From positions 46,624,001-46,688,000 of the forward strand of contig OZ024746.1 of assembly GCA_964016885.1 (NCBI GenBank): 64,000 nucleotides of DNA. Reading direction: 5' to 3'. This document shows, piece after piece, positions 3,395 through 64,000 of this stretch (position 1 is the stretch's first letter; each line of letters begins with the position of its first letter). Both the position numbers and the translations under genes were made by a program. The notes beneath the pieces were generated by a model, which had not been told where the DNA came from, did not search any database, and saw only the letters and a list, made by a program, of their open reading frames with translations. This stretch comes from Eledone cirrhosa (lineage: Eukaryota).

Positions 3395-3879
3395 CAAAAA
3401 TATATATATACTATATATATATAGTATATATATATATATATATAGTATATATATATATAGATATAGTATATATATATATAGTATATATATATATAGATAT
3501 AGATATATATATATAAATATACTATATATATATATAAATATAGTATATATATATAGTATATATATATATATATAGTATATATATATATATATATATATAG
3601 TATATATATATATATAGTATATATATAGTATATATATATATATAGTATATATATAGTATATATATATATAGTATATATATATAGTATATATATATATAGT
3701 ATATATATATATATAGTATATATATATATAGTATATATATATAAATAGTATATATATATATATATATATACATATATAATATATATATATATATATAGTA
3801 TATATATATATATATATATACATATATAGTATATATATATATATATATAGTATATATATATATATATATATATATACAG

Positions 3880-6390: not shown

Positions 6391-6957
6391 TTATTTTCTA
6401 AAGTAGGTGTTATGTGTGTGTGTGTGTGTCATATTATGGTGTTGACATAATGTATAATTAACCATATTTAATGCTGATCTATATTTTTGAATAAACATAT
6501 TTTCCTTATTTATTCGTATTTGTTCTGTTGTATTGTTAGCGCAAAGGTAAAATGGGACGACTTGGAATTTGGGTGTCTTATTACTGGCGCAAATGTCTAG
6601 ATGTGCACTTAGTGGTATCTGTCTCGTGGTTGGATCTCGTAATTGTTGGCGATGAACTTTAATTCTGTTTCTGAGTGTGAGTTTAGTTTGTCCTATATAA
6701 TCTTCATTGCATCCTTTACATTTAATGGCATAAAGTAGATTTTTTGATGAGCAAGTGAAGTGATTTTTTACAGTAAAATTTTGTCCTGATTTAAATGTAT
6801 ACGTGTTGCCTTCAATGAGGTGAGTGCAGGTTCCACAATTAGAGCGACCACATTTTTTGATACTTGGTTGTGGGTTTGTGGTAGGTAATTTGGCATTGGT
6901 GAGTAATGTTTTCAGTGATTTTGGTTGTCTTTTGCTTTTGATTATTGTGTGTTTCAA
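6391..6957 (-). pseudogene. PLE GIY-YIG endonuclease domain with Cys-rich linker
   Basis: CGRSNCGTC...FTCSSKNLLYAIKCKGCNEDYIGQT...RIKVH...KENMFI...LN. Frameshifted relative to the RT ORF. Confidence 0.9.
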
Positions 6958-8722
6958 GGGTTTTTTTCATTCTTGGGGTTTGTTTTAGTAGTGGGATGTT
7001 CTTGTGAATAGTGGTGTAAGCTTCCGCATTTCTTGGGTTGTCTTGAGATATATGATAGAATATTGGACGTACCTTGAATTTGTTTCTGTTTCCGTAATTC
7101 ATCAATGCCTATTGCTTTAGCCCTTTCTATTCCATTATTTATTAGTAATAGTGGGTACTCTCTCTCGAGTAGAATTTCCTTTAATTCTTGAAGTCTTTTA
7201 TTTCGCGTTTCATAATTGGAGACAATTGTGCAAATTCTTCTTGCTAGGTTAAAAGGAATGTTCGTCTTCGTGTGCTTTGGATGGTTGGAGGTGAATAGCA
7301 GATATTGTTTGGAATCTGTTGGTTTGTAGTGTATGTCAGTTTCGATATTTATGTCTTTTTTTAAGATTAAGATGTCCAGAAATGGGAGTTGATCTTCGCT
7401 GTATTCCATTGTGAATTGGATGTGGTTATTGATGCCGTTTATTAAGTTTTTGAAATCCTTCAGTTGGTCGAGTGTGTGGGACCAAAGAATGAGGCAATCA
7501 TCCAAGTAGCGTTTCCAATTCTCTGATAAATATTTGTGGAAGTTCAATCCGTATTTTGATTTGGACTGTTCATATATCTGGACTTCTAAGTATGCCATGA
7601 CTAAGTGGGCATAAGTTGGAGCGGCTTTTGTACCCATCGCAGTCCCCGATATTTGCTTGTAAGTACTGCCATCGAAATCAAAATAGTTGTTCTGTAAGAT
7701 GAATTTTAATCCCTCGGTGATGAAGCTTTTTTCTATTCTGTCAGGTATCTCATTGGGATATTTCTCTAGCCAGAATCCTATTGCTTCTAGTCCGTATTGG
7801 TGTGGGATCGTTGTGTAGAGATTCACTACATCGAAAGACACAATAATAGTGTCGTTGTTGACATGTTTGGGGAGGTGGTTTAAGAGGTTCAGATCGTCTC
7901 TTACAAGGCTTGGTATGTGTTTCAGAATTGGTTTCAGTAGTATGTCTATAAAGTTGCTCAGTCTGTGTGTTTCACATTGTGGGCCCGCTACAATTGGTCT
8001 TAATTTAAGGTCTGTGGGGTATTGTGTGTTCACGCAGGCTGAGGTGGATTGTTTACAGGCATCGTTGATTATTTTACACTTGTGGATCTTCGGAAGTCCT
8101 CAAGGTTGCTGGTTTTGTATTCAACATTTTTTAAATAATCGCGTTCCTTTTAAGTTAGGTCTTCCTGGTATCGATAAATCAGTGTGTTTAATCTGGTCAT
8201 TATTTTTGATTGCTGGTAGTTTTTTACTCTTTCATAGTAATTAGTATTTTGTAAGAGAGAGAACATAGAATGTTTATATTTTTCAGCCTCCATAATGACA
8301 ACAGTACTTCCCTTGTCCGCTTCCTTAATTATAATGTCCGTATTGTTTTTTAGTTCATGGATAATCTCCCATTCCCTTCGACTCGTGTTGGGTTTGGGTT
8401 TAGGTTGCGGTAGTTCATGGTATGGGAAGGTAGCTATGTGGTCACAAAATTTGTCCAGAACTCTGTTTCTACCTTTTGTTGGGTTGTAGCTGCTTTTATT
8501 CCGTACAATTGATTCGTCGTTATTCTCCTTGTCAAAGAATTCCTCTGTGAGACATAATTTTCTACAGAAGTGTGAGATATCGTCATTTATCTCATTGGGG
8601 TTAGAGTATTGTGGTGTTGGTGTGAATTTCAGTCCTTTGGAGAGAAATTTTACTTGTTGGGCTGAGAGGTTTGTATTTGAAAGGTTAATTATTTTCGGTT
8701 TTTCAAAATGGGTTTGTGCCAC
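6954..8722 (-). pseudogene. PLE reverse transcriptase (frameshifted)
   Basis: IINLS...LSKGLKFTPTP, IIKEADKGSTVVIM, GLPKIHK, LRPIVAG, SFDVVNLYT, GTAMGTKAAPTYA, RYLDD, LPFLDILI, HYKPTD. Frameshifts near 8040-8150 and 7000-7050. Confidence 0.93.
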
Positions 8723-9423
8723 CGGGTGTCGTGAGTCCTGTAGCCTTGGTCTAAAAAATGATTTTTCTGGAATGTTTTTTCAATGGTATTATTATATCTA
8801 ATGGTATTTCCCCTGTTGTTGTGTGGTCTTGTATAGAGGTTTCGGACGTATTGAGGTTCGGTTTGTTGATAGTCCGGGTTGTAGATTTTGTTCCTTTGTG
8901 TGGGTTGGGATCTACGGTTTGGGAACAGGCTCTGTGTGGGCAGGGGTCTACGGTTTTGGAATAGGTTTTGTGTGGGTTGTGATCTGCGGATCAGGTCCTG
9001 CCTTGTGTTCGGGGATCTTTGGTTTTTGTTAGTAGGGTTATAGTTTTGTCTATGGTTTCTGGGATTATCGTTATGGTTTTGCTGGGCGTATGTTGGACGT
9101 TTTGTTACTTTTTTTGTCATTTGTTGTGCATGTGGTGTGTGAGTTTTAGTTTGTTTTAAAAATGGGTTACCTGTATGTTGTTCATTTTTGAAGTCCATTT
9201 CGTAGTTGTTGAACCAGGTGGCGTTTTTTTCCCATCGCTGGAGGGATGTTAGTTCTTCATCCTCACAGTTTTCTTTCCAAAGTTTTAGGGGGTTTTTGTA
9301 GAGTAGGCCTTCAGAGTGCTTTGAAATTTCTGTGTCCATCTGTTGGTCGAGTGACTTGAATTTTTCTTCGTTGGAGTTGGCTCTTAATCGCAACAGTTCT
9401 ATTTCTGTTTTAAATTTTTCCAA
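8689..9423 (-). CDS. PLE upstream ORF (coiled-coil plus Q/N/R/P-rich), overlapping the RT frame in -1
   Basis: 244-aa open frame directly 5' of the RT. Ends shortly after CAT TTT TTA GAC. Confidence 0.55.
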   Translation of the reverse strand: MEKFKTEIELLRLRANSNEEKFKSLDQQMDTEISKHSEGLLYKNPLKLWKENCEDEELTSLQRWEKNATWFNNYEMDFKNEQHTGNPFLKQTKTHTPHAQQMTKKVTKRPTYAQQNHNDNPRNHRQNYNPTNKNQRSPNTRQDLIRRSQPTQNLFQNRRPLPTQSLFPNRRSQPTQRNKIYNPDYQQTEPQYVRNLYTRPHNNRGNTIRYNNTIEKTFQKNHFLDQGYRTHDTRWHKPILKNRK

Positions 9424-10136
9424 CGCCAGATTTTCCCTAAGTCTTTATTGGTTTTCTGGTTCATTCGGGATGGGTTTTATTTGGAGTTTTTTTGGGAGGA
9501 TGATTGGGGTAGAGTTTAGCCACTTTTCAGTATATATATATATATAGTATATATATATAGTATATATATATATAGTATATATATATATAGTATATATATA
9601 TAGTATATATATATATAGTATATATATATATATAGTATATATATATAGTATATATATATATAGTATATATATATATAGTATATATATTCAGTATATATAT
9701 ATATAGTATATATATATAGTATATATATATATAGTATATATATATATAGTATATATATATAGTATATATATATATATAATATATATATATAGAGTATATA
9801 TATATAGTATATATATATATATAATATATATATATAGAGTATATATATATAGTATATATATATATATAATATATATATATAGAGTATATATATATAGTAT
9901 ATATATATATATAATATATATATATATAGTATATATATATATAATATATATATATAGTATATATATATATATAATATATATATATAGTATATATATATAT
10001 AATATATATATATAGTATATATATATATAATATATATATATAGTATATATATATATATAATATATATATAGTATATATATATATATAATATATATATATA
10101 GTATATATATATATAATATATATATATAGTATATAT

Positions 10137-18535: not shown

Positions 18536-18588
<53 letters not shown>

Positions 18589-18619
18589 ATCAAAAGATGG
18601 TTAAAGGAGTTCCATGTAT

Positions 18620-18684
18620 TTTATTATGCGCACTTCAAAAACAAACATCATCATGCAATAATATTTGTGTTTTCATCAGATAAA
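18620..18684 (-). ncRNA. Type I hammerhead ribozyme (GAAA>GAAG variant)
   Basis: Reverse complement: TTTAT-CTGATGA-long stem II-GAAG-TGCGCA-TA-ATAAA. Confidence 0.75.
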
Positions 18685-19894
18685 ACAGGAGAACATGATA
18701 TGAAGGCTAAAAAACACTTGTGGATAGTGCAGTTTTAAATCAACATATGAAAAGTAGTTTTAGATTGATGTGTGATATTGGGAAAAATATTTTATTTAGA
18801 GAGGAGGGGTGGAAAGGATGAAAAAGGGGAGCAGATGAGAGTGAAGGTGGAGAGGGAGAGATGTGTGATAGAGAGAAAGAGATAGTTTTTATAACTGAGA
18901 GAAGATATATTGTTTTACATAGAGAGGTTGAAAACCGTTGGAAGATAATGTATAAATTAAAAGAATTTGAAAATTAACGAAGGGAAAAATATGTACGAGG
19001 AATAAATATTTTATTTAGAGAAGGGGGGGGTGGAAAGGATGAAAAAAGGGGAGGAGATGAGAGTGAAGGTGGAGAGGGAGAGATGGGTGATAGAGAGAAA
19101 GAGATAGTTTTTATAACTGAGAAAAGATATGTTGTTTTACATAGAGAGGTTGAGAACCGTTGGAAGATAATGTATAAATTAAAAGAATTTGAAAATTAAC
19201 GAAGGGAAAGAGAGGGAGTTGATATGTATTGAGATTGAAAAGTTTGAATATAGAGAGAAAAAATAATAATTGCGGATGAATATTCTAACGTCAAAAAGGT
19301 GTATGTTTATAAGTATCATGGCAATTTCAAAATTAACGAAGAGAAAAAATATTAAGGTTTGTGTGTTGAAGGATTTGAGAAAAGTAATGTGAAGTTAAAG
19401 TTTGTATATTGAAGGAATTGATATGTGCGAAGAAAGAGTTAATATGTATTAAAATTATTAAGGTTTGTGTATTAGATGATTTGAGAAAAATAATGTGAAG
19501 TTAAGGTTTTTATATTGAAGGAATTGATAATTTGTGCGAAGAAAGAGTTAATATGTATTAAGAATGAGTTAGTTGATGGAAAGAAGAAAATATATTATTA
19601 AGGATGAATATTCTAGCATCAAAAGGAGAGGGAGTTAATGTATTGAGATTAAAAAGTTTGATGATGGAGAGAAAAAATAATAATAATTGCGGATGAATAT
19701 TCTAACGTCAAAAAAACAAATGTATATGTTATGAAGGATTTTACAAGGTGAAGATAGAATGAGGGTAATGAGTAAACAAGTATTATTGAGTGTATAATGC
19801 CCTTTGAAGTAAGGTAGGAAGATGGGTATATTTTAAAGAGGTGTATGTATATGTGCCTTTGAGAAAAGATTCTAAATTGATAAAGAATTGAATA

Positions 19895-20180
19895 TTAGCT
19901 GTATACTCTGTGAAAAGTCCTATGGAATTTATGCAGGCAGATAGAAAACAAATATATACGTCTATTTATTATAGAATCTAGATTAGAGATAATGGTAAAT
20001 TTTTCATTTAGGCAGAGATTACAGATTTTAGATAGAGAGCTGTTCAAGTATGAGGACGCAGAAGAAACCTTCTTCCAAAAGATGGTATATTTAATGTTTT
20101 TGTCTTTCAAGGACCATATGAGTTCTGAGAGAGCCGTGTTGGTTCTTTTAAGTTTGTATTTAAAAGATGAATGATGATTA
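19895..20180 (-). pseudogene. C-terminal part of a PLE GIY-YIG endonuclease
   Basis: HHSSFKY...TALSELIWSLKD...IFWK...CNLCLNEKFTI...INRR...CLH. Same motif set as 24741, 32515 and 53031. Confidence 0.8.
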
Positions 20181-20951
20181 ATACATATTAACTCTTTCTT
20201 CGCACATATTATCAATTCCTTCAATATACAAACTTTAACTTCACATTATTTTTCTCAAATCCTTCAACACACAAACCTTAATATTTTTTTCTCTTCGTTA
20301 ATTTTGAAATTGCCATAATACTTATAAACATACACCTTTTTGACGTTAGAATATTCATCCGCAATTATTATTTTTTCTCTCTATCTTCAAACTTTTCAAT
20401 CTCAATACATATCAACTCCCTCTCTTTCCCTTCGTTAATTTTCAAATTCTTTTAATTTATACATTATCTTCCAACGGTTCTCAACCTCTCTATGTAAAAC
20501 AACATATCTTTTCTAAGTTATAAAAACTATCTCTTTCTCTCTATCACCCATCTCTCCCGCTCCACCTTCACTCTCATCTCCTCCCCTTTTTTCATCATTT
20601 CCACCCCCCCTCTCTAAATAAAATATTTTTTCCTCGTACATATTTTTCCCTTCGTTAATTTTCAAATTCTTTTAATTTATACATTATCTTCCAACGGTTT
20701 TGAACCTCTCTATGTAAAACAATATATCTTCCCTCAGTTATAAAAACTATCTCTTTCTCTCTATCACCCATCTCTCCCTCTCCACCTTCACTCTCATCTC
20801 CTCCACTTTTTTCATTCTTTCCACCCACCCCCCTCTCTAAATAAAATATTTTTCCCAATATCACACATCAATCTAAAACTACTTTTCATATGTTGATTTA
20901 CAACTGCACTATCCACAAGTGTTTTTTAGACTTCATATCATGTTCTCCTGT

Positions 20952-21016
20952 TTTATCTGATGAAAACACAAATATTATTGCATGATGATGTTTGTTTTTG
21001 AAATGCGCATGATAAA
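20952..21016 (+). ncRNA. Type I hammerhead ribozyme (non-cleavable ATG triplet in this copy)
   Basis: TTTAT-CTGATGA-AAACACAAATATTATT...GATGTTTGTTTTT-GAAA-TGCGCA-TG-ATAAA. Confidence 0.75.
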
Positions 21017-21145
21017 ATACATGGAACTCCTTTAACCATCTTTTGATCTTATATATTATGTATACTCCAGTCCTACAAACTGTAGAATGCTTATTATCCG
21101 ATATCTGCATTGCTTTATTGTACTACAATAAAACTCACCTCCTAC

Positions 21146-23700: not shown

Positions 23701-23774
23701 TTATAGTATATATATATAGTATATATAGTATATATATATACACATAGTATATATATATATATATACTATATATA

Positions 23775-24169
23775 ATGAAATGACAGGAGGCTGGATTTGT
23801 GTAAATCCTTGAAAGGTTTATTATACTATGATCATTTCAATGACCGGGTTCCGTATGAATCCGGTGATATCATCAGGTATTCGAAATATAATACGTGAAT
23901 GTAATAGATGAAATCCATGGGGCTGAAAATCGAGGATCCGAGGGCGACCGCTATCTTGCACCCTCTATCTTAGCCTCTATCTAAGGCTCACAGTGTGCTA
24001 CTACCGGTCAGATAAAGGAAAACAGAAAGGGATGGGAATATAAGTTACAAGACAAAAGAAAGGAAGAAAGGAAGGAGAGAGAAGAAGGGGAAGGAAGAAG
24101 AGGAGAAGCCAGGGTTAATGTCAGCTATAAGAATAAAGACAGAAAGAGGAGGAAAGGTCGGTATTACAG
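23775..24169 (-). mobile_element. PLE pseudo-LTR fragment
   Basis: Minus strand reads pyrimidine-rich tract, then HHR, AATAAA, a short tail and (TA)n. Confidence 0.65.
23823..23880 (-). ncRNA. Type I hammerhead ribozyme
   Basis: Reverse complement: ATAC-CTGATGA-TATCACCGGATTC-ATACG-GAACCCGGTCATT-GAAA-TGATCA-TA-GTAT-AATAAA. Palindromic stem III. Confidence 0.75.
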
Positions 24170-24740: not shown

Positions 24741-25583
24741 AAGAACTTCCCACCCAACCATAGGTATAGAAATATTCTCAATAGGAACAATATAAAAATA
24801 TCCTTCTCTACTACTCCTAACCTAGCAGACATCATAGGAACAACGAACCACAGTAAGATCACCAAGACACAGCACCTCGACACAGACGCACCTACACCTG
24901 ACAATAACTATATCGGCCTTAACAACTCCCTGGCAGCATCCAATAGTGTTGGCAACGGCATCCGCATCCGCAACCAGAATAACCGCGAAATGACTGGGGA
25001 ACATGGAGAACATGACGTGCGGAATAACAATCGCACCACCCCGCGTGCTGTGGGTTGTAATTGTGCTAACGACAGCTGCGGTAGCGTAGGTAACAACGTA
25101 GGCAGCAACAATGATAGCCTTACCGTGGGAAATAGACGGAACCGCGACAGAAATTGCAACTGCCGCGACAGAGGACGCTGCCCCCTTAGAGGATACTGCT
25201 TGACTGATAGGGTTATATATAGATGCACTATTACTAGCCACAATAGCGTTAAACATTATATAGGGGCCACCTCCGGCCCGTTCAAAATTAGGTTTCGAAC
25301 ACATCTCCACTCTTTCACAAATAGAAAACTAAGGCACTCCACTTCGCTCGCGGACTACATCACATCACTAAAGGACTTAAACATCAGCTACTCCACGCAC
25401 TGGGAGATTGTCGGCAGGGCTGCACCGTACAACTTCAAGAGGAAATGCGATATTTGCCTCATGGAGCTCTACCACATCATAATTGCACCCCACGAGCTCA
25501 TCAACAGCAGAGATGAAACAGCGATAAGTTGTACACATCGCTTAAAAATATCCTTCTTCAGATGGGTTAAGGATGAAGAGTGA
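24741..25583 (+). pseudogene. 5'-truncated PLE ORF: linker plus complete GIY-YIG endonuclease
   Basis: Frame is open from the TA junction: KNFPPNHRYRNILNRNNIKISFS...CNCRDRGRCPLRGYC...VIY...YIGATSGPFKIRFRTH...WEI...CDICLME...INSRDE...CTH. Confidence 0.88.
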
Positions 25584-30026: not shown

Positions 30027-31344
30027 TATATATATATATATATACTATATATATATATAGTATATATATATATATACTATATATATATATAGTATATATA
30101 TATATATATATACTATATATATATATACTATACATATATATATATATATACTATATATGTAGTATATATATATATATATAGTACATATATATATATATAT
30201 ATAGTATATATATATATAGTATATATATATATAGTATATATATATATATATAGTATATATATATAAATATAGTATATATATATAGTATATATATATATAT
30301 ATAGTATATATATATATATATATATAGTATATATATATAGTATATATATATATAGTATATATATATATATATACTATATATATATATATATATATATAGT
30401 ATATATATATATACTATATATATATATATATACTATATATATATATACTATATATATATATATACTCTATATATATATATACTCTATATATATATATACT
30501 ATATATATACTATATATATATATATACTATATATATATATATACTATATATATATATACTATATATATATATATACTATATATATATATATACTATATAT
30601 ATATATATACTATATATATATACTATATATATATACTATATATATATAGTATATATATATATATATATACTATATATATATACTATACATATATAGTATA
30701 TATATATATATATATACTATATATATATACTATACATATATATATATATATAGTATATATGTAGTATATATATATATATATAGTACATATATATATATAT
30801 ATATAGTATATATATATATAGTATATATATATATATAGTATATATATATAAATATAGTATATATATATATATATATATGTATAGTATATATATATATACT
30901 ATATATATATATATATACTATATATATATATACTATATATATACTCTATATATATATATACTATATATATATATATACTATATATATATATATATACTAT
31001 ATATATATATACTATATATATATATATATATACTATATATATATATATATATACTATATATATATACTATATATATATACTATATATATATAGTATATAT
31101 ATATATATATATAGTATATATATAGGAACGATCGGCTTTCGTGAAATCGGACCGAGGGAACAATGTTTCCGTTGGTCTTTCCAATTGCTAATACTATCTA
31201 TCGGTCGCAACTCCAGGTAGAAGGAGCAACGTGAAATAAAGTGTCTTGCTCAAGGACATAACGCATCGCCTGGTCCAGGAATCGAACTCACAACCTTACG
31301 ATTGCGAATCCAATTCTCTAACCACTCAGCCACACGCCTTCACA

Positions 31345-31806: not shown

Positions 31807-33212
31807 TAAAACAGAAACACAGGTAAGCATTAAGAGAAGGATTTTATCCAGGTATTGACGACCGTTTCATTGGTAAGTGCAACCTTATATTGCTATACTG
31901 CAAATAGCAGCCATTCAATTATAATTGTTGTTCACAGTCCAAATATTCAAATAGTGAGTAAGTTACTCTTGAAATAATTCTTAATATATAGAGAAAAACA
32001 TATATTTGGAATTGTATTTACTAGTATAGAGAGAGAGGAACCAGAAGGTGAGGGGACAAACGGAATAGTATAGAGAGAGAGAAAGGGGGAAGAGGTAGGA
32101 AGTAGAGTGACAAACTGAGATGGGGGAGGGGTAGAGGTGGAAGGATTCTTTGGTCTGTTTTGATAGCTGACTTCATGTCGTGGAATGTAGTGAGTTAAAG
32201 AGAATTAAATTGATCATAGTGGGAGGGGTGGATAGAGAGGGAGAGAGAGGGGGCTATAAAGGGAATAATATATATATATAAAAATAAAGATAAAGATAAT
32301 GACAAAAATAAAAGCAAAGAAGGGGGTGAGAAAGAAGAAAAGAAAAGATAGCCAAGAAGGGGAGAGAAGGAAGGAAGAAATCGAAGAAATAGAAGAGGAA
32401 TGAGGGAGAAGAGGGGGATATATGTATTGGTTTTGTGGGTAATTAAAAGGGTTTAGATACAACAAGAGGGTATAAAGTCTAAGTATATGCAGTTTGTCAG
32501 TTGGTAGTAAGAGGTTAAGGGTTCGATTTGTAGTGCGAAAACTTCTCTTTGAGTCTATGGTTACAATAAATTGATCTTTCGATTTTATTGTTGAGTAACT
32601 TATTCTTCGAACTCAAGATGTGGAACAGCTCAAGGTCGCATAATCGACAGCTTCTCATACCACTCCGATATGGGGGCGCGTTCGATAATTTTTTCCACTT
32701 CAGGGTGTATTGATGGTTACTTTCCCTCAGTTGCCAAGTCTTGTTTACAAAAGTAGTTACATAACTATGCTGGGAATGTTTCATTGCATAACGGTGTGTA
32801 TGCCAACGGGCTTTAAATGTATTCTCAGTCGCTCCGAGTAATGCCATTTCTGGTTATCTGATTCCACTGTGCATTGGTAAACCAGGTTAGACTGCATACA
32901 TTCATTATGTAATGGACAGGTTTCAGGTAGGTGGCAGTTACAATTCTTGTCATGGGCAACTTTGGCATTATTGGTGGGCTGCGATGCCTGTACAAGTGGG
33001 TTACGTTTTGTTTGCCTATTAGCGGGTGGTTGTGTATTAGATATAATACCTGGATAAAATCCTTCTCTTAATGCTTACCTGTGTTTTCTCTTTTATACTT
33101 TATACTCCAAGATTGAACGGAATTCTTACAAACTTGTGGAGTTACGTTGAAACCATCCATGAAACTGCTTTTCTTAACCAAGAACTGGATCACAATAAGC
33201 AATTTTTTGCTT
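31803..33212 (-). mobile_element. 5'-truncated PLE with a short inverted pseudo-LTR segment
   Basis: GIY-YIG remnant at 32515-32950. 31803-31856 is repeated inverted at 33045-33098. Degenerate HHR at 31853-31953. Confidence 0.82.
32515..32950 (-). pseudogene. PLE GIY-YIG endonuclease, frameshifted
   Basis: CNCHLPETCPLHNEC...LVY...HY/GATENTFKARWHTH...TWQLRE...CRLCDLELFHI...LNNKIE...CNH. Confidence 0.85.
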
Positions 33213-37335: not shown

Positions 37336-37520
37336 GGCGGTGGATTGGCAGTATCGGTAGAGAGTCGGACGCCATGCTTTCCAGCATAGTTACGTCCCTT
37401 TACGATCTGAGTTCAAATCCCGCCGAGGTTGACTTTGTCTTTCATCCTTACGGGGTCGATAAAATAAAGTACCAGTAATGCAGTGGGTAATTGCTGGCCT
37501 TGTGCCTAAAGTAGAAACAA
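37336..37520 (+). mobile_element. tRNA-derived SINE family A (Deu/Nin-like central domain)
   Basis: TGGCAGTATCGG A box, GAGTTCAAATCC B box, CTTTCATCCTTACGGGGTCGATAAAATAAAGTACCAG core. 12-bp TSD ATTATTGTTTAG. Confidence 0.9.
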
Positions 37521-38448
37521 TTATTGTTTAGCCCAAGCTTAGTTGTGATTAAGGATCAAACGTTCCATTTTTCAAATATTTAGAACAATGTTATCGAATG
37601 TATTTTGGAAGATATAAGCGTGATTTGGCTACTATTTTTAGCTATTCAAGTAACTACGCATAGGCTTTTTCTTCTCTTTTTATCTTCAGAGTTTTATCTT
37701 CCTCAAATATTGGAAATAATCACTTGTCTTACTGGTTCATGATGAGTAAGAAAACATATCAATAGCAAAATACGTTTTCTAGCAGTACTGATATAAATTG
37801 TATTGATCGTTCGAGCAATGAAAGATGAAATTATCCTGGGAAAGATGTCAATTTCGAAAATCGAAACTAAATGCTGCATAAGACGGAAAACCGTTCTGCT
37901 CCAATGTTTCGAATACATCGATGTCCTTTTAGGGAATTCATACTGATGGTGAGAAGGAGGTTTAGATTGTGTGATGATCGTGAATGTTAGTGTCATAGAC
38001 ACCATGAAACAGTGGCAACCGCCATTGATAATTCAGCTGGTATTTGCTCTGGTATTTGCTTATTATATCTGTGTATAAAAGTTTATTATCCCCTGTGCTG
38101 TTTTTCAGTTTATGCAGTTAATTATTGATTTTATGTTATTTATTTATCCACAAGGTCATGCATGCATAAGGAAGGAATATACTTATTGATGTTGTGTTTA
38201 CTCACAAGATCACACATGTATAGAAAAGGCATATAGTCATTGATCGCTTATTTACTTAGAAGGTCACACATGGGCAAGAAAGTAGAATAGGCATTTATAT
38301 CGAGTCAGCAGATTACTGACACTTATGTTATCAGCACTTACAAAAATCGTTCCGTGGGATTTTAGCATAGCCTAGAATATAGTAACTACTATAAAGCATG
38401 CACTGAATCAACGTTCTGACTTCTATCTCTATTGAGCACACTACTGTA

Positions 38449-43000: not shown

Positions 43001-43253
43001 GTCTGCAGGTGTGGCAAGCCGCATATAGCCATTAGTAAAATGCCCCACCTTTGAATGAGGGATGACATAAGAAGAAGACTGGCATCTGATTAAGCGCAGA
43101 AAGTCTGAAATGGTATTAGCGAATAGGATTTTCGTTCTCGGTGAAGTGATAAATGAAAAACATTTAAATAATTGGAGGGGAATATTCTTTAAAACTTTAA
43201 AATTATTTATTATAAAAGAATGTTTAATAAACTAGAAAGATATTAATATTAAT

Positions 43254-43431
43254 TGTTTCTACTTTAGGCACAAGGCCAGCAATTATCCAGTGCATTACTG
43301 GTACTTTATTTTATCGACCCCGTAAGGATGAAAGGCAAAGTCAACCTCGGCGGGATTTGAACTCAGATCGTAAAGGGACATAACTATGCTGGAAAGCATG
43401 GCGTCCGACCCTCTACCGATACTGCCAATCC
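43254..43431 (-). mobile_element. SINE family A
   Basis: Near-identical to the 37336 copy. TSD AATATTAAT. Confidence 0.9.
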
Positions 43432-44057
43432 AATATTAATGAGAGAAATACTCCTTCAGTAAAAATTAGGTGCTCTAGAGGGTGTCATGTGTCTCAATGA
43501 AAATATCAAATAGTTCTTTAAAGTAGGATACAATTTCCTTTTGTTAAGGGCAAAGGTTTCTAGGTGCTAACATGCTAAAGAAATCCAATATCACTGATTC
43601 AATTAAGGTTACGTTCAATGTATTTGCCGATTCCGATTTTTTTGTGATGTTCAAAATTTTAAAATCCCGTTGAAATACACTTCTTTATAATGTCTATACA
43701 TGACAACAATATGACAGTACTTGCTACTTCATTCTTTTATTTTGAAGCTTATAATATAGTTAAACACTTGAATAATTTTGTATTCTTCATCATAGCAGCT
43801 GTCATTATCAACGATTTATTGTGAACAAATTTTGTATTGTTAGCTTTCAAATTATTCGTGACAATTCTATTATTAATAATAGCTTTAAATGTTGACATTT
43901 TGAAAACACGCTTCTAGCAATAAAGTGGATTTAGAAATGTTGGAGCAATTTCCTCTACAATATCAAACCTTCAACACATTTTATGGTGGCGCAATTATCA
44001 ATTGGGTGCGTGTTGTATGGAATTACATTCAACATTACAGAATGAATATTGTTACTA

Positions 44058-48342: not shown

Positions 48343-48976
48343 GTAAGTATGTATATATGTATACGTACATACATATATGTATACAGACGTACAGTAGTAT
48401 GTATATATATACATACATGCACACATATATGTACGTCTGTATACATATATGTATGTACGTATACATACATACTTACATTTAAGTAAGTGCTGTACTAAGA
48501 GTGAGAAATGAAATATCGTTTCATTCTATTCCATTTATTGTTTTCGGTGTGCCCGTCCGACTGAACTCACTCGATATGCAAATTAGGCTGCTCAGCCGTT
48601 AATATGCATAAGGAAAGTATATACTTTCAGACGTTCAACCATCTGGCAGAAAGGTATACGATGCTGACGATAGCTAATAAGCTTGAAACTAGTACATCGT
48701 TCCTGTGTCAGTGTTGAAGAAAAAGGTGACGTGGTTGCCTAAACACTGTACGGCGTAATTCGGGCAGTTTGTTTGTTCACAAACAAACAAACCGAGCATT
48801 ATAATAAATGTTCGGTAAACCGATACGTGCATATATATATATGTGTGCATGTGTGTATATATATACATACTACTGTACGTCTGTTTACATATTTGTACGT
48901 ACGTATACATACTTACATTTAAGTAAGTGCCGTACTAAGAGTGAGAAATGAAATTTCGTTTCATTCTATTCCATTT

Positions 48977-48977
<1 letters not shown>
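48343..48977 (+). mobile_element. Retrozyme-like repeat family R2 (440 bp period, >1 unit, short inverted 5' piece)
   Basis: AAGTAAGTGC recurs at 48481 and 48921. HHR at 48659-48699. No coding capacity. Confidence 0.8.
48659..48699 (+). ncRNA. Type I hammerhead ribozyme (R2)
   Basis: CGATG-CTGACGA-TAGCT-AATA-AGCTT-GAAAC-TA-GTA-CATCG. Stem I extends through CTGGCA..AGG / CCT..TGTCAG. Confidence 0.88.
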
Positions 48978-49287: not shown

Positions 49288-49368
49288 ATATAGAGTTATT
49301 AACTCATATAGATACCCTGCAATTAACAAGCTTAAGCTATAAATACTGAGCATTATAATATTAAAAGC

Positions 49369-49550
49369 GGTGGATTGGCAGTATCAGTAGAGGGTCGGAT
49401 GCCATGCCTTCCAGCATAGTTACGCCCCTTTACGATCTGAGTTCAAATCCCGCCGAGGTTGACTTTGCCTTTCATCCTTACGGGGTCGATAAAATAAAGT
49501 ACCAGTAATGTACTGGGCAATTGCTGGCCTTGTGCCTAAAGTAGAAACAA
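49369..49550 (+). mobile_element. SINE family A
   Basis: Near-identical to the 37336 copy. TSD TTATAATATTAAAAGC at 49353-49368 and 49551-49566. Confidence 0.92.
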
Positions 49551-49864
49551 TTATAATATTAAAAGCAAGCAATAATAAGAATATTGATATTGTATGTATA
49601 TTCAATAAATAAAACTCGAGGATATTCATTGCCTTCAGTATAAAGTACGAACATTAAACGCTGAGATAAATATTTCCCAAATCAATGAGTTAATAACTCT
49701 ATATTTTATTTGTATTTCGGCTCCTTATCTGTTGAGCTTATAAAAATGAGTGTAAATAGGCTATTATTTCTATCATAACGACTCGCACTGCATATGACTT
49801 TCAACGCACGAGGTGTAAACTTTAGTGAGTTAATCGTTATGGATGTAATGTAACATTTAGTCTT

Positions 49865-51030: not shown

Positions 51031-51075
51031 TCACACACACACACACATATATATAAATTTCGTTTCATTTTTTCC

Positions 51076-51130
<55 letters not shown>

Positions 51131-51198: not shown

Positions 51199-51365
51199 TG
51201 TGTATATGCGTGTGTATTCTTTTTGAATTTGCCACGGACGTAGAGACAGTGATTTTCTCAATGGCTAGGATTTCAGTCCACGCTTCGCTATTTCCTCTCC
51301 ACTGAATTATTTTTTTAATAAGTTTCCAGAGTCCTCGCTATGCCTGGAAACTTACATGAAAAGAG

Positions 51366-51447
51366 ACTTTCCTGACGACGGAATGCTTATCAATATGTTC
51401 TTCGGAAAATATATTTACTCCATTCCAGAAACTAATTAGTTGGAAGT
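51366..51447 (+). ncRNA. Type I hammerhead ribozyme in a solo island (51215-51648)
   Basis: ACTTTC-CTGACGA-C-GGAATG...CATTCC-A-GAAAC-TAATTA-GTT-GGAAGT. Palindromic stem III. Confidence 0.85.
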
Positions 51448-51645
51448 GATATTTTAGTATTTAGTATTATATATTTAGTCAATTTTATAATTTTTTTATA
51501 ATTTTATAATTTTCTTATCTTACGTCTCTCATATTATTGTTCTGCAACCCCATGCATTGAACCACAACGTTACTAAGACAAAACCTATATATTTGCTAGC
51601 ATTGATATGCATCTGTATGTATATAAATGTTACTAGATATAAATT

Positions 51646-51719
<74 letters not shown>

Positions 51720-51722
<3 letters not shown>

Positions 51723-52222
51723 AACAGAAAAAATGAAACGAAATTTCATTTCCCACTTTTAGTACGGCTGTTACTTAAATATAAGTATGTACACATACAT
51801 ACATATATGTATACAGACGTACAGTAGTATGTATATATATATACATGCACACACATATATATGTACGTATGGATTCACCGAACACTTATTATAATGCTCG
51901 GTGTGTTTGTAAACAAACATCCCGTATTAAGCTGTAGTGTCTAGTAACCATCGTTGCTCGTTTGTTCAACACTGACAAAGGAACGCTGTACTAGTTTCAC
52001 GCTTATTAGCTATCGTCAGCAACGTATACCTTTCTGCCAGATTGGTGAACGTATATACTTACCTCATGCATATTAACGGCTGAGTAGCCCAATTTGCATA
52101 TCGAGTGGGTTAATCGGCCGGGTGCACCGAAAACGATAAACGGAAAAAATGAAACGAAATTTCATTTCCTGCTCTTAGTACGGCTGTTACTTAAATATAA
52201 GTATGTACACATACATACATAT
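51720..52222 (-). mobile_element. Retrozyme-like R2 copy (416 bp period variant)
   Basis: Reverse complement of the 48481 unit. HHR at 51984-52024. Confidence 0.8.
51984..52024 (-). ncRNA. Type I hammerhead ribozyme (R2)
   Basis: Reverse complement: CGTTG-CTGACGA-TAGCTAATAAGCGT-GAAAC-TA-GTA-CAGCG. Confidence 0.85.
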
Positions 52223-52226
52223 AGGT

Positions 52227-52833
52227 ATAAGCTTGAAACTAGTATAGCGTTCCTTTGTCAGTCTTGAACAAACGAGCAACAATGGTTGCGAGAGACTACA
52301 GCTTAATACGGGATGTTTGTTTACAAACACACCGAGCATTATAATAAATGTTCTGTGAATCCATACGTACATATATATATATGTGTGCATGTATGTATAT
52401 ATATATACATACTACTGTACGTCTGTATACATATATGTATGTACCTATACATACATACTTACATTAAGTAAGTGCTGTACTAAGAGTGAGAAATGAAATT
52501 TCGTTTCATTCTATTCCATTTATCGTTTTCGGTGTGCCCGGCCGACTGAACTCACTCGATATGCAAATTAGGCTGCTCAGCCGTTAATATGCATAAGGAA
52601 AGTATACACTTTCAGACGTTCAACCATCTGGCAGGAAGGTATACGTTGCTGACGATAGCTAATAAGCTTGAAACTAGTACAGCGTTCCTTTGTCAGTGTT
52701 GAACAAACGAGCAACAATGGTTGCTAGACACTACGGCTTAATACGGGATGTTTGTTTACAAACACACCGAGCATTATAATAAATGTTCGGTGAATCCATA
52801 CGTACATATATATATATATATGTGTGCATGTAT
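52227..52833 (+). mobile_element. Retrozyme-like R2 copy (435 bp period), inverted relative to the adjacent copy
   Basis: Starts inside an HHR (AAGCTTGAAACTAGTA at ~52229), with a full HHR at 52644. Confidence 0.8.
52644..52684 (+). ncRNA. Type I hammerhead ribozyme (R2)
   Basis: CGTTG-CTGACGA-TAGCT-AATA-AGCTT-GAAAC-TA-GTA-CAGCG, with extension CTGGCAGGAAGG / CCTTTGTCAG. Confidence 0.88.
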
Positions 52834-52926
52834 GAATATATATCTACACACTACTGCCGAATGCTCTGAATCAGTTATAAACATCTATATTTGTTGGATT
52901 TCCAACAAATTAAATATCTTTTCTAC

Positions 52927-53004
<78 letters not shown>

Positions 53005-53006
<2 letters not shown>

Positions 53007-53649
53007 ACGGCAACATCGTTTAAATCTCGATTGTATAGGCATTCTTACTCAATAAAACACCAGAGCCAAAGAAATGTAACAACTTTAGCAGAAAAAGCTT
53101 GGACGCTCAGGGATAGCGATCAAAAGTTTACCCTAAAATGGGAGAAATTAGCTAAAACCCAAAGCTTTTCCAGGAGCCAAAATTTCTGCAAATTGTGTAA
53201 TCTTGAGATTTATTACATAATCACACACAAGAAGAAACTGCTGAATAACAGAATTGAACGAACATTATTCTGCCGTCACAGAACTAAAACCCTTTTTTCC
53301 CACTACAAGCCGAATATTACATAAAAGAAGGACATCCCCCAACTATATAAACCTTAATCTAGTTAGAAAAATATAAAAACAATCTCTTCTCAACATATAT
53401 TAATAACCTTAAATTACCACACTAATAATGGAAAGATATGCTGATGAGAATAGGTGCAAATATGCGATAATGAATGTGTCTAAAAACGTCCATAAGTATG
53501 TATATATATGTGAAAATGTATATAAATAAGTAAATATATATATATGTTTGATGTGTATAGTTAGATGTAAGTTTATTCATGTATTAAAGTGCTTATATAT
53601 ATATATGTATATGTATATGTATATGTATGTGTGTATGTATATATATATA

Positions 53650-54488: not shown

Positions 54489-54545
<57 letters not shown>

Positions 54546-54759
54546 TTAAAAATGTACATCCACATATGTATACTGAAATACTAGTATGCATATGAATACA
54601 CACACGTATACATATGTAGATGTACCAAGTTTTTCAGTGGTCACTTTACTGTGAGTGTCCAGCTATTCTGTATGTAAACACACAGACAAACCGGTTTTTA
54701 GAGTCATACTGGTTTTTGAGGAAACACCTTTCCTCTATTCTCCAGAAAGCCAGACAAGG

Positions 54760-54804
54760 AATATTGAACTAGTTTCGTTGTTGTTATAACTCATCAGCAA
54801 TATT
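54760..54804 (-). ncRNA. Type I hammerhead ribozyme (R3 copy 1)
   Basis: Reverse complement: AATATTG-CTGATGA-GTTATAACAACAAC-GAAAC-TA-GTT-CAATATT. Long distal helix ATTCTCCAGAAAG / CTTTCTGGAGAAT. Confidence 0.87.
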
Positions 54805-55225
54805 TACCTATCTTCCGGCCTTTCTGGAGAATCGTAAAAGCACATATCGTTATATGCTTTTTCTATGAAAATTAGTAGTGGGCAGACTAATTTGCATAGA
54901 GTGTGAGTACGTACCGGTTCAACGGAGACGATAAAAACAAATAACGAAACGAAATTAAATTTCGTTTCGTTTGTAACTCACTTTTGTATGACTGACGCTT
55001 AAACAATTAAGTTAAAAATGTACATCCACATATGTATACTGAAATACTAGTATGCATATGAATACACACACGTATACATATGTAGATGTACCAAGTTTTT
55101 CACTGGTCACTTTACTGTGAGTGTCCAGCTATTCTGTATGTAAACACACAGACAGACCGGTTTTTAGAGTCATACTGGTTTTTGAGGAAACACCTTTCCT
55201 CTATTCTCCAGAAAGCCAGTAAAGG

Positions 55226-55270
55226 AATATTGAACTAGTTTCGTTGTTGTTACAACTCATCAGCAATATT
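55226..55270 (-). ncRNA. Type I hammerhead ribozyme (R3 copy 2)
   Basis: Reverse complement: AATATTG-CTGATGA-GTTG-TAACAA-CAAC-GAAAC-TA-GTT-CAATATT. Confidence 0.9.
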
Positions 55271-55694
55271 TACCTATCTTCCGGCCTTTCTGGAGAATCG
55301 TAAAAGCACATATCGTTATATGCTTTTTCTATGAAAATTAGTAGTGGGCAGACTAATTTGCATAGAGTGTGAGTACGTACAAACGAAACGAAATTTAATT
55401 TCGTTTCGTTATTTGTTTTTATCGTCTCCGTTGAACCGGTACGTACTCACACTCTATGCAAATTAGTCTGCCCACTACTAATTTTCATAGAAAAAGCATA
55501 TAATGATATGTGCTTTTACGATTCACATATATATATATACATCTATATATATACATATATATACACATATATATATATATATATACATATCTATATACAT
55601 ATATATATATATATACATATCTATATACATATATATATATATATATATACATATCTATATACATATATATATATATATATACATATATATATAC

Positions 55695-56958: not shown

Positions 56959-57899
56959 ATGGACTGCATGCAGGAAAAATGTGAAATCAGGAGTCAACGA
57001 AACTGGTCAAAGATGGAACTAGCGGTTTTGATCAAGGGGTGGACCATGGCTGATGGGTCTCCACCAAGCAAAAAGATGGCGGAGAACCTGAAGAGCCATG
57101 GGTTTCTGAGGACCCTGGCACAGATAGCGAGAAAGAGAATAGAAATTGAGAAGGCGTATGTCCTCATAGCGCCTCATATGGCGATGCTAAGCCGTGTCCT
57201 CAGGGAGGAGAAAACCGAAGGGAGGGATGAGGAGAAGGAGAGGGAAAAGGAAGAGGAAAAAGAAAAGGAGGAGAGCACAAGCACGGACCTGAAAGAAAAT
57301 GATATACCCTCCGCCACAGGCAGGGAGGGCAGGCCGGGCAACCAACAAGCTAAGGGCAAAGGTGAAAAGCGAAATCACCTTCCGAAGGAGAACCAAGCGC
57401 AGAGGGACCAGTGGACAACTGTTCAAAGAAAGAACAGAAAGCACTAAGACACTGGGAGCAAAAAACACCAAGTAATGTGCAAGTCTTTCAAGAACGGGAC
57501 ATGCTGGCATAGAGAGACAGGGATGGGATGCAGATTCGCCCACCCTAGGTCTCAAACGAACTATGCCCATCATACTCGCGCAACATGCCCCAGCCAAAGC
57601 CGAAATAAGCCGCTCCAGAAGTATGCTGATGTCGCGGGTGCTGCACCAACAAGGAGAAGGTACGCACATGCCGACGAGATACAGATGGCAGCAGCAGATC
57701 AGAAAATTTTTTAGTGATGGCAGAGAAGATTGTGGGACAGCTGACCTGGCTGCATCGTCTCCAGAGCCAGGGTCATCCACACCAGCACTCGAGACCACCG
57801 CAGTTAAGGGACCCAGAGTGGCCGCCGCTGACACCAGACCAGGTGTCATACCGACAGCCATTACTGGCACCCCAAAAGTCACACCAGTGCTGCTGCTGA
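56959..57899 (+). pseudogene. LINE ORF1 (Myb/SANT-like N-terminus, CCCH finger), with one stop and one probable indel
   Basis: WSKMELAVLIKGW...GFLRTLAQIARK. In-frame TAA at 57445. CKSFKNGTCWHRETGMGCRFAHP, KYADVA. Confidence 0.6.
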
Positions 57900-60859
57900 A
57901 TGTCAGGGGCCTGGTGAAACTCAGCAACATGAGTAAAATTTCCTACCTGGGAAACTTAGCCATAAGCAATCAAGCACTATGCATGGCACTAACCGAAACG
58001 CACCTGACAAGCAGTATAGCAGATGCAGAAATACATATACCGAAATATACTGTATTTCGTTCGGACAGGAAGGAGAGAACTCATGGTGGGGTTGCTCTGT
58101 ATATCCGTGAAGATGTCACACCAATTGTACTGTTGACACATTCAAACTCAGTCTGTGACACACTGATAATACATATGAAGCAACTACAGACGGTAATATG
58201 TGTCACATATCGGCGGCCCGATGCCCCCAGTCATGAGGGTAAATTTGAGGATAGCCTAAGTAGGATAGAAGAGGTCCTTGACAAACTGGACCAGGGTCTC
58301 AACATCCTACTGCTGGGAGACTTCAACCTACCAAAGGTCAAATGGCCTGAGGGCCACCTCCTCCCTGGAATGACGTCAATAGAACAGAGACAGACGGAAT
58401 CCCTGCTGGCCCTCACACACAGGCTGTTCATGGAGCAAGCAATACTCCTCCCAACAAGAGGTGAAAATGTCCTGGACCTCTGTTTTACAAACAACGAAGT
58501 GCTCATCCACAATGTAAAGGTGACACCAACAATTCTCTCGGATCATAACTTAGTAGAGCTAATGACATGTGGTCCAAGAGAACCAACAGAGACAAAACCA
58601 CCAAGAAGCTCAGGGACGCTATCCAACCTTAACTTCTACAAGGCTAACTGGAAAAAGATTAAGAGTGAAATCCGGAAGCAAACATGGAGTGAAAACATCG
58701 CCACACAAGACACTAACACACAATTTCAACACTTCATGACAACGATACACACCATATGCAAAAAGTGTGTCCCGGAGAAAGAGGCAAACAGACACAAAAA
58801 TCTTATTCCCAGAGATAGGAAAATCCTTATGAGACGTAGAACTAAACTCTCAAACCAGTTGAATAGTCAACAAAACCAAAACAAGAAGGAATCCTATTTG
58901 AAACGTGTACTACTTGACACCGAGATTGCACTCAAACTTTCACATGAGAATGAGAGGTCAAAGAAAGAGAACAGGGCCATAGAAAACATTAAAACAAACC
59001 CTAAGGCCTTCTTTAAATTTGCAAAAGAAACTGCCTCAGTACACTGCAAGATTGGACCACTCTTCCACACGGACGGTTCATTAACCGAAAATCCCCAAGA
59101 GATATGTGAAATACTGAACGAACAGTACAAAAGTGTCTTCACATGTCCACTGAGGCACATGCAAATAACGAAGCCAGAGGAGTTCTTTGATGCCACAACA
59201 CTACATCAAGAAATGGCAACCATCAACCACATAGACATAACGGAGGAGGATGTGGTGTACGCCATTGATGAAATTAGAACAGACTCGGCTGCTGGATCTG
59301 ATGGATTCCCAGCAGTTCTCCTAAAAATATGTAAGCGGGCCTTAGCAACTCCACTGAAGATGCTCTTCAGAAGCTCTTTGGCTAGCGGTGTACTACCCAG
59401 GGAGCTGAAAGAAGACACAATATGCCCTATCCATAAAGGAGGTAGTAGAGCGGAGGCCAAGAACTATAGGCCAGTCTCCCTGACGTCGCATATCAGTAAG
59501 GTCATGGAGCGAGTCGTCAGAAAGAAACTAATCACTTTCCTCGAAGAAAATGACCGCCTGACTAGCACGCAACATGGCTTCCGCCCAGGAAGAAGCTGCC
59601 TTACACAGCTGCTACATCACTACGACTGGGTACTGAGACAACTACTAGACAGCTCACATGTAGACGTGATATATCTTGACTTTGCGAAGGCCTTTGACAA
59701 GGTCGACCACGGAATGATATGTCTCAAACTACACGGACTCGGCATAACTGGAAAAGTAGGTGAGTGGCTGCATGGCTTCCTAGGGGACAGAAGCCAGGCA
59801 GTCGCAGCAAATGGGGCCCTCTCGAGGGAAACACCGATAACAAGTGGGGTGCCCCAGGGGACAGTCCTGGGACCACTACTGTTTTTGGTGGCTCTCTCGG
59901 ACATGCCCTCTGTGGTGCATGCAACAACATCCCTCACTAGCTATGCTGATGACACTAAGGTAGCACAGGCAATCAAAAACCCGGCTGACGCTGCCCTCTT
60001 ACAGCAGGATCTGGATGCCATATACAGATGGGCGGAAGAAAACAACATGCAGTTTAATGCTGGCAAATTCCAAGCCCTACAATACAAACCTGCAAACACA
60101 AACACAAATATAGCGGAACACAGCTACACAGGAGCAGGAGGGACCGATATCCCCGTGTCAAAATCGATACGAGACCTGGGCATAGACATGAGCGATGATG
60201 CATCTTTTTCTTCACACATCATGAAGGTGGCGACAACGTCTAGACGATTCGCTGGCTGGATCTTGAGGACTTTCCTTACAAGAGATCGAGACACCATGTT
60301 GACACTGTGGAGGACTTTTGTCCTAAGCCGCCTGGACTACTGCTCCCAGCTGTGGTCACCCCATAGTGTCAAACTAACCACGGAGCTTGAGGCAATCCAG
60401 CGAAGCTACACCAAGAGGATTGCCAAGATGAGGGAGACAAGCTACTGGGAGAGGCTAAAGGAACTGAACCTCTACTCCTTGGAGCGAAGACGGGAGAGAT
60501 ACGCAGTGATCTACATGTGGAAAATCCTGGAGGGACTAGCACCAAACTTTGGCATTGGGAGCTGGACCAACCGTCGAACAGGACGTCACAGTGTGGTGCC
60601 AAAGGTCCCGCCTTCCACATCTAGAATAAGGAGCAGGTATTGCAATAGCCTGGGATTCAAGGGCCCTCAACTCTTCAACAGGCTGCCGAAGCATCTGCGA
60701 GACTTGCATGACGTGGAGGTGGATGTCTTTAAGAAACATCTCGACACCTTGTTATCCAGGATCCAGGATGAGCCCACAGCAAGACACGAGGGAAACCTAA
60801 GGGCAGCAGCAACAAACTCCCTCCTACACCAGTGGCCAACCTATACAGGCTGGAGATAA
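57563..60859 (+). CDS. LINE ORF2: apurinic-like endonuclease plus reverse transcriptase (true start uncertain)
   Basis: LNVRGL, ALTETHL, RSDR..GGVALY, LLGDFN, LDLCF, SDH; [59 protein letters not shown]. No stops over 1098 codons. Confidence 0.95.
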
Positions 60860-63337: not shown

Positions 63338-63437
63338 AATATAGACATAGAATATTCGAAAATATTCTGTATGTTTATAATAAACATTTTGAAGACCTAA
63401 TCGCTATAGAATAGAATACGTCACGTATTACAATTAG

Positions 63438-63526
63438 ATTCTCGATAAAAGCAAGGGAAGTAATCTACGCGTTTCATTCTCGTTAGAAATCATCAGGACT
63501 ACATATCCAGTGCTTTTATCGAGAAT
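63438..63526 (-). ncRNA. Extended type I hammerhead ribozyme (R1 copy 1)
   Basis: Reverse complement: ATTCTCGATAAAAGCA-CTGGATAT-GTAGTC-CTGATGA-TTTCT-AACG-AGAAT-GAAAC-GC-GTA-GATTAC-TTCCCT-TGCTTTTATCGAGAAT. Confidence 0.9.
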
Positions 63527-63747
63527 GACACAGCTAGAGACTTATAGAATACTTAGCTGTGTACAGGAACTGGTTTGAAAGAGCGGTTGCCGGTCCGGCA
63601 GAAATTAGAAATTGGAATAAATGCTCTGAAATAGCGATATATATGTGAATATAGACATAGAATATTCGAAAATATTCTGTATGTTTATAATAAACATTTT
63701 GAAGACCTAATCGCTATAGAATAGAATACGTCACGTATTACAATTAG

Positions 63748-63836
63748 ATTCTCGATAAAAGCAAGGGAAGTAATCTACGCGTTTCATTCTCGTTAGAAGT
63801 CATCAGGACTACATATCCAGTGCTTTTATCGAGAAT
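63748..63836 (-). ncRNA. Extended type I hammerhead ribozyme (R1 copy 2)
   Basis: Same as copy 1 except CTGATGA-CTTCT. Confidence 0.9.
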
Positions 63837-64000
63837 GACACAGCTAGAGACTTATAGAATACTTAGCTGTGTACAGGAACTGGTTTGAAAGAGCGGTTGC
63901 CGGTCCGGCAGAAATTAGAAATTGGAATAAATGCTCTGAAATAGCGATATATATGTGAATATAGACATAGAATATTCGAAAATATTCTGTATGTTTATAA

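Follow-up and report, generated by a model that had tools for sequence, protein, structure and literature searches.

Results

Ribozyme-bearing repeats and neighbouring elements

The window analyzed in the current work (a DNA stretch of 64 kb) is AT-rich, microsatellite-laden and of eukaryote type, and contains several hammerhead motifs. A pattern scan for a type I hammerhead core associated with a stem I of 6-7 pairs retrieved three R2, two R3 and two R4 units, whose monomers measure 435, 466 and 310 nt with a GC content of 0.37, 0.35 and 0.35, respectively. R2 is present as an insertion of ~1.25 units (R2a, 48430..48977, + strand), as a 27-nt stub within a microsatellite (51055..51081, +; consisting of the 3' half of hairpin H1 and the linker described below), and as two arms joined head to head, namely R2b (~1.17 units, 51720..52229, - strand) and R2c (~1.45 units with a period of 435, 52227..52856, +), the latter holding the block under study. 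These two arms (51720-52856) are ~90% identical and come from different R2 subfamilies, which suggests either that two RNA templates were primed on opposite strands or that two insertions occurred at one site. R3 forms a tandem of ~1.8 units of 466 nt that are 98.7% alike (54541..55380, -), accompanied by an inverted arm (55378..55527, +) which carries the block and the octamer and ends before the ribozyme. R4 (63343..64000, -), a third candidate retrozyme used here for comparison, is composed of 310-nt units that are 99.7% alike, and possesses a hammerhead without the octamer. The stretch 51215-51655, located between two R2 ends, is unique and includes a hammerhead-core-like motif at 51372 without a clear stem I. 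Following the R2c arm, a 70-nt piece (52857-52927) ends in (TA)n ~16 nt past a 9-pair hairpin; it has no match to R2, R3 or R4, and may derive from a different element whose 3' end was attached through template switching.

The hammerhead of R2c (52643..52685, +; core at 52649, predicted cut after 52679) has a 6-pair stem I, a weak stem II and a stem III of one pair within a palindrome, and given this last feature the ribozyme is likely to be dimeric; stem III corresponds to a short palindrome in R2, R3 and R4 units alike. In a comparison with Rfam, R3 copies matched HH9 below the gathering score (E values of 1.9e-5 and 2e-4), R2 copies had no match among the 150 of 212 matches listed, and no family reached its gathering score anywhere in the 64-kb window; miRNA matches, all below gathering and mostly placed on microsatellite hairpins, were rejected. 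The RNA circles predicted from the R2, R3 and R4 monomers are strongly self-paired (z of -5.6, -13.9 and -4.1, respectively; 40 shuffles each).

R2 and R3 monomers can be aligned end to end (z=16), with 66% identity per R2 position compared to 57% in shuffles, and they have in common the hammerhead (score 25; 0 of 300 shuffles) and a long TA hairpin (2 of 300 shuffles). Based on this alignment of the whole unit, R2 and R3 represent subfamilies of a single putative non-LTR retrozyme. The family is large and shared across studies, parts of it being present in 20 sequencing runs from 16 studies; contig pieces were examined from four of 23 runs (9,058 from X1, 17 from X6, two from X13 and none from X20). 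R4 ends ~19 nt after an 8-pair hairpin with a UUCG loop, a spacing equal to that of the R2 ends after their TTCG, which is retained as a curiosity only, the R4 end being ambiguous by several bases. The R4 hairpin aligns weakly to a different part of R2 (score 28; 1 of 200 shuffles).

Among the neighbouring elements, a frameshifted Penelope-type element (6391-9444, -) encodes RVT_1 and C-terminal GIY-YIG domains (RT and GIY-YIG near 6391-8779), and a Penelope-like insertion (18586-21050), both ends of which stop at the same base before TA, is framed by an 875-nt inverted repeat; this insertion also displays internal repeats of ~220 nt and a hammerhead-like motif near its end (18679, -). A solo pLTR-like piece (23770-24160, -), with a hammerhead core at 23876 and a palindromic stem III, ends in (TA)n. 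Three related endonuclease-like remnants (24741-25583, +; 32515-33074, -; 53004-53556, +) are 28-31% alike with common Cys/His positions and gave no GIY-YIG match in Pfam; the last of these carries a decayed hammerhead-like motif near 53440. The window also holds an open endonuclease-RT (LINE-type) reading frame of 1127 aa, stop to stop (57476-60859, +), a SINE-like 215-nt repeat (2816-3029, 3181-3395 and 31116-31340) that twice forms inverted pairs within TA microsatellite, tail to tail or overlapping, and a dispersed 190-nt repeat (37337-37524, 43243-43432 and 49367-49554; copies 95-97% alike), which we take to resemble octopus SINEs.

One conserved island among several

The initial annotation had drawn attention to an 86-nt block of R2c (52495..52580) with a perfect octamer shared with R3. 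Both strings quoted for this block are present, in R2 at 52497-52576 and in R3 from ~54955 (-) and ~55397 (+), as are the four octamers then listed (48576, 52092(-), 52561 and 54890(-)), all of which are located in R2 or R3, where two further occurrences were found (55356(-) and 55456(+)). Ten octamers occur in the window against 3.68 expected, a number reached by one of 100 shuffles; six are in R2/R3 and the other four outside any hammerhead unit, and the excess is a reflection of the copy number of one ancestral site rather than of independent gains. The distance of 80-95 nt reported between octamer and ribozyme, taken here from the octamer end to the hammerhead core, holds for four copies (80, 80, 92 and 92 nt) and fails for one (72 nt), the 55456 copy stopping before its ribozyme.

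The rest of the units had been described as different, which applies to part of their length only. As indicated above, the monomers align end to end and share the hammerhead and the TA hairpin, whereas five of nine segments remain at background: no local R2/R3 similarity was found in four of the nine (52245-52320, 52321-52362, 52456-52483 and 52596-52636), and that of the segment encompassing the linker and hairpin H2, taken alone, is not significant (48 of 300 shuffles). Hairpin H1 and the octamer hairpin H3 score 27 and 30 (each 0 of 300 shuffles), next to 25 for the hammerhead. As a whole, the 86 nt are identical at 59 positions (69%), close to the unit average. Considering that three strong islands (H1, H3 and the hammerhead) and the TA hairpin stand above five background segments, the block, although conserved in sequence as strongly as the ribozyme, is one of the conserved islands that R2 and R3, as subfamilies of a single element, have in common.

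These values bear on the possibility that the block is simply a less-diverged and functionless part of the common ancestor, with an octamer present by chance. Such a history would agree with the end-to-end homology of R2 and R3 and with an identity of 69% in a unit averaging 66%; it is at odds with the scores of H1 and H3, which are as high as that of the catalytic hammerhead, and with the pair-keeping changes in H0 and H1 and the coincident R2 3' ends described below, and we consider it very improbable.

Variation within the family was followed in the 9,058 contig pieces of run X1, in which 27 of 255 positions carry a variant at 8% or more. The octamer is without a variant at this level, yet 104 of 248 8-nt windows (42%) are equally invariant, and the longest run devoid of such variants (52477-52510, 34 nt) holds H1. 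Between R2 and R3, the octamer is inside the longest exact match (12 nt), conservation extends 12 nt past it, and 18 of 20 nt of the 3' flank are kept. The prediction that a conservation profile across copies would show the octamer to be more conserved than its flanks is therefore largely not borne out within the family. The octamer is intact in two of the three contigs from other organisms that reach the site, while the third (organism C) begins within the octamer, its loose letters (depth 6) pointing to a loss of 4 nt. A dip in X1 depth at 52510-52554 was discarded as evidence, pieces being clipped there by local indels and dense variants.

The octamer as a candidate promoter element

The octamer could act as a DNA element, in which case a POU factor, perhaps bound also to the inverted near-copy downstream, would drive internal transcription of the unit. 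The sequence is perfect in all six R2/R3 copies covering the site, the chance of an octamer occurring in a unit being ~0.03 and that of keeping eight given bases 0.02-0.06, and its position in the longest exact match, its lack of X1 variants, its persistence in two other-organism contigs and the fixed state of the octamer arm of H3, next to a partner arm that varies, are all in keeping with such a role. The promoter of newt satellite 2 reportedly contains both an octamer and a PSE. A precedent is offered by the snRNA promoter of this satellite, as presented in the part of PMC2220036 considered here, which cites Coats 1994.

Against this role, an exact match of 12 nt is to be expected at some place in the unit in 28-60% of cases, many 8-nt windows are as invariant as the octamer, the H1 run is far longer, conservation goes on for 12 nt beyond the octamer, organism C may have lost 4 nt of it, R4 is without it, and seven of its eight bases are predicted to be paired in RNA. 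In mammalian U6/7SK promoters the octamer occupies a position around -200 to -244, with the PSE around -47 to -67 (PMC3958870). By this spacing, a PSE would be placed ~135-185 nt downstream of the octamer (52696-52746, with a tandem twin in 52245-52320); in that zone R2 and R3 resemble each other no more than shuffles do (190 of 300), a family-specific PSE being possible. Sea urchin U6 relies on an E-box instead (10.1101/2023.01.09.523328). The sense strands of R2, R3 and R4 contain no combination of Pol III A and B box patterns. Internal transcription from the octamer, which is compatible with the start module proposed below, is thus possible but rather unlikely in our assessment.

A predicted RNA module common to R2 and R3

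Each folded independently, the R2 copies (z of -2.45, -2.36 and -1.05) and R3 (z of -5.54) adopt a similar layout, the block being predicted to form the same RNA module in both subfamilies, with an outer helix, two hairpins around a U-rich linker and the octamer hairpin; this layout is kept in the predicted circular folds. The outer helix H0 (52484..52557, +; 52484-52490 pairing with 52551-52557), whose 3' arm is the ACTCAC of the quoted block, closes a predicted three-way junction. All seven H0 pairs form in R2a and R2c, six of the seven in R3 and only five in the internal R2b copy. An A-U to G-C change in H0 is obtained when the 5' arm of the 3'-end copy of R2b is paired with the R2b 3' arm of the same insertion, so that this pair-keeping change depends on combining arms from two copies of one insertion. 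In hairpin H1 (52490..52510, +), the change from R2 to R3 is from U-A to C-G in an outer register or from U.G to C-G in an inner one, and in either register the A/G difference within the first quoted motif is matched by an upstream T/C change. The pyrimidine-rich, single-stranded linker (52511..52524, +) belongs to the longest unpaired run of the predicted circle (17 nt), and is followed by H2 (52525..52550, +), a GC-rich hairpin which is predicted in both R2 and R3, is sequence-variable and contains many variants in X1.

Hairpin H3 (52560..52595, +) has the octamer (52561-52568) as 5' arm and an inverted octamer with one mismatch as 3' arm. Ten of its 11 pairs form in all six copies, the hairpin z is -2.5 in R2 and -5.8 in R3, and the seven octamer bases predicted to be paired are so with p at least 0.87 in the R2 and R3 circles. 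The X1 variants 52589T and 52591T (26% of depth each) equal the R3 state; variable sites in H3 number zero in the octamer arm versus two in the partner arm, a difference that is not significant, and no two-sided change was seen among the octamer's own pairs in the R2/R3 copies. Application of RNAalifold to four copies returned an unfavourable covariation term (+1.44) with a two-sided change in only two of 45 pairs, a poor outcome which arises because MAFFT misplaces the insertion of R3. We propose that its role as 5' arm of H3 in a start module is the main reason why the octamer has been conserved.

Coincident ends of R2 insertions

The insertions comprise 1-2 units, end in TA/CA microsatellite, and contain inversions at 52227 and 55378. 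The 3' ends of R2a, of the stub and of R2b (48977, 51081 and 51720), that is, three of the four R2 ends in the window, fall on the same linker base, after which the sequence continues as TA/CA microsatellite ((CA)n(TA)n for R2a and (TA)n for R2b). These coincident ends have three different flanks and come from two subfamilies, and in combination with the circular fold they place a putative RT start between positions 52522 and 52523 of R2c. The junctions have a 2-3 nt TA overlap with the target. The fourth R2 end (52856) is located away from this site, and the R2-equivalent site is used by neither of the two R3 ends in the window, the 3' end of the R3 tandem entering (TA)n 76 nt upstream of it; no pair of R2/R3 end sites is 30-40 nt apart. 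By hand calculation, the chance that three of four R2 ends agree is ~2e-4 on a 435-nt circle, or ~0.012 if priming is restricted to the 18 unpaired TA steps of R2.

Sequencing runs were also inspected for loose ends, none of which was found at 52522 among 13 of the 184 listed, nor was a place where many molecules end; because the scan skipped repeats, junctions into (TA)n may be missing from this listing. Loose ends at 52460-52464 (X6 and X13), which resemble the R3 end, were rejected, as a plain microsatellite of the window matches the 38-mer concerned equally well.

The hairpins might serve only to fold and stabilise the RNA circle, or to help the ribozyme fold, in which case an RT would prime passively, without specific recognition, at whichever U-rich TA step is most exposed. 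Whole monomers are indeed strongly self-paired in prediction, the R2 start is within the longest unpaired run, and R3 ends elsewhere, near other hairpins. On the other hand, R2 offers 17 other unpaired TA steps, none of which is used by any of the four R2 ends, and H1 and H3 keep sequence beyond pairing, whereas other helices of the circle are without remaining local similarity. We regard such passive priming as unlikely.

Discussion

The R2, R3 and R4 repeats fit the description of non-LTR retrozymes, as far as covered by the portion of Cervera & de la Pena 2020 (PMC7229834) drawn on here, with a Penelope-type insertion structure (Craig 2021, likewise used in part). The units are low in GC, occur in tandems or partial tandems and have a size around the ~150-450 nt known for such elements, R3 (466 nt) being slightly above 450 and inside the range of 51-972 nt given in the part used of a 2026 preprint (Li, Clavereau & Pollet 2026, 10.64898/2026.07.22.740005). 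With the animal elements in the parts of these two publications used for comparison, the units (310-466 nt, 35-37% GC) share the presence of one type I hammerhead each, partial tandems, a predicted circle that is highly self-paired and Penelope-like elements alongside; the short palindromic stem III resembles that of amphibian retrozymes acting as dimers. Self-cleavage and circular RNA would be expected for R2, R3 and R4 by analogy with these other retrozymes. R2 and R3 differ in being dispersed as 1-2-mers with inverted arms, animal non-LTR retrozymes forming long arrays, and neither a fixed start of RT, nor a conserved module for it, nor an octamer is described in the portions of PMC7229834 and 10.64898/2026.07.22.740005 consulted. 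The latter preprint, in the sections concerned, links retrozymes to pLTRs by homology, and no such homology was found in this window. No paper on the block or on the R2/R3 family was found, PMC10886601 and PMC6962438 containing nothing on the family in the parts covered; subscription literature, Repbase/Dfam and supplements were mostly outside this search, so that the families may be catalogued there. A metagenome scan for the octamer together with a hammerhead core gave at least 119 loci, none of 119 having both hammerhead stems and none being R2/R3-like by BLAST, and these were dismissed as chance matches; a viral scan with a degenerate octamer-flank pattern gave no match.

Considering the coincident R2 ends, the exposed site, the fold common to R2 and R3, the pair-keeping changes in H0 and H1, and the invariance of H1, we favour the reading that the block is an RNA module which would direct a borrowed Penelope-type RT to a fixed internal site for the start of copying, and hold it to be somewhat probable. 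That the block may be an RT-recognition signal had been one option of the initial annotation; it gains support from three of four R2 ends at one base, in the longest unpaired stretch of a fold predicted for both subfamilies, and loses some from the R3 ends, neither of which is there. The one R2 end located elsewhere and the RNAalifold term also count against it. The insertions have the inverted arms and TA targets of Penelope elements (Craig 2021, in the part compared); a microsatellite target and a partial tandem flanked 5' by an inverted copy, as seen here, are expected of Penelope-mobilised insertion. The window also holds the Penelope-type element with RT and GIY-YIG domains and further Penelope-like ends at TTA|TA. 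Five pLTR/UTR-like stretches of the window yielded no autonomous partner carrying a comparable block (top score 53, versus 52 and 47 for TA-rich controls), and a likeness between R2 and the Penelope remnant at 53320-53580, on the 3' side of the latter, was set aside as no better than TA-rich controls.

According to the proposed mechanism, the unit would be transcribed, cut by the hammerhead and circularised, as in other retrozymes. Next, a Penelope protein would bind both the junction formed by H0, H1 and H2 and hairpin H3 downstream of it. This putative helper would nick a TA microsatellite, and the nick would prime on the U-rich linker by means of the 2-3 nt TA microhomology. Copying would then continue past one full turn of the unit, and a second, inverted arm would often be added, yielding the partial tandems and head-to-head insertions, layouts which are observed here.

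By analogy, the coincident R2 ends match the internal RT start described for a Penelope-like element of the anole, Poseidon PAc of Anolis, in the part available of Frangieh 2024 (PMC11167929). There, RT starts internally in a stem-loop at ORF positions 111-118, RNA is required to +172, that is, ~55-60 nt beyond the start, and genomic 3' ends mark the internal starts; in R2, ~55-60 nt past the start spans H2, H0 and the octamer arm. Also in common with PAc, as far as that text is used here, are AT-rich targets, the extension of both strands, which fits the head-to-head R2/R3 arms, and, for three of the four R2 ends, a constant internal position in the RNA close to a stem-loop. PAc differs in being autonomous, with a start in an AC-rich stem-loop inside an ORF, R2 and R3 being non-coding with a start in a U-rich linker; its two start sites are 30-40 nt apart, compared to 76 nt between R2 and R3 ends, and it starts without homology to the cut target DNA, while R2 ends have the 2-3 nt TA overlap (PMC11167929, same part). 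Newt satellite 2 resembles R2 and R3 in that it carries a hammerhead, has a short stem III and reportedly includes an octamer in its unit; unlike this satellite, R2 and R3 are without a common sequence in the PSE zone, have an invertebrate-type host and carry the octamer in a predicted hairpin.

R2 and R3 belong to a known type of element, and their value is that of a testable handle on retrozyme copying. The mechanism of retrozymes remains to be elucidated according to 10.64898/2026.07.22.740005, and how non-LTR retrozymes are recognised and copied is open according to the parts cited of that preprint and of PMC7229834; a fixed start site within a module of two subfamilies represents a small, concrete substrate on which the model of Penelope hijacking may be tested, and the start module could reveal which RNA features are recognised by a telomerase-related RT. 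Should the octamer also drive transcription, the family would be a second, independent ribozyme repeat with its own Oct-based promoter. A bolder and, in our estimate, improbable extension is that animal retrozymes bear a dedicated, structurally conserved landing pad for the Penelope RT, which would set the point on the RNA circle where copying begins, and that here the same 110 nt double as a DNA promoter by way of the octamer in one hairpin arm; if true, R2 would combine promoter, ribozyme and RT origin in a minimal replicon of 435 nt.
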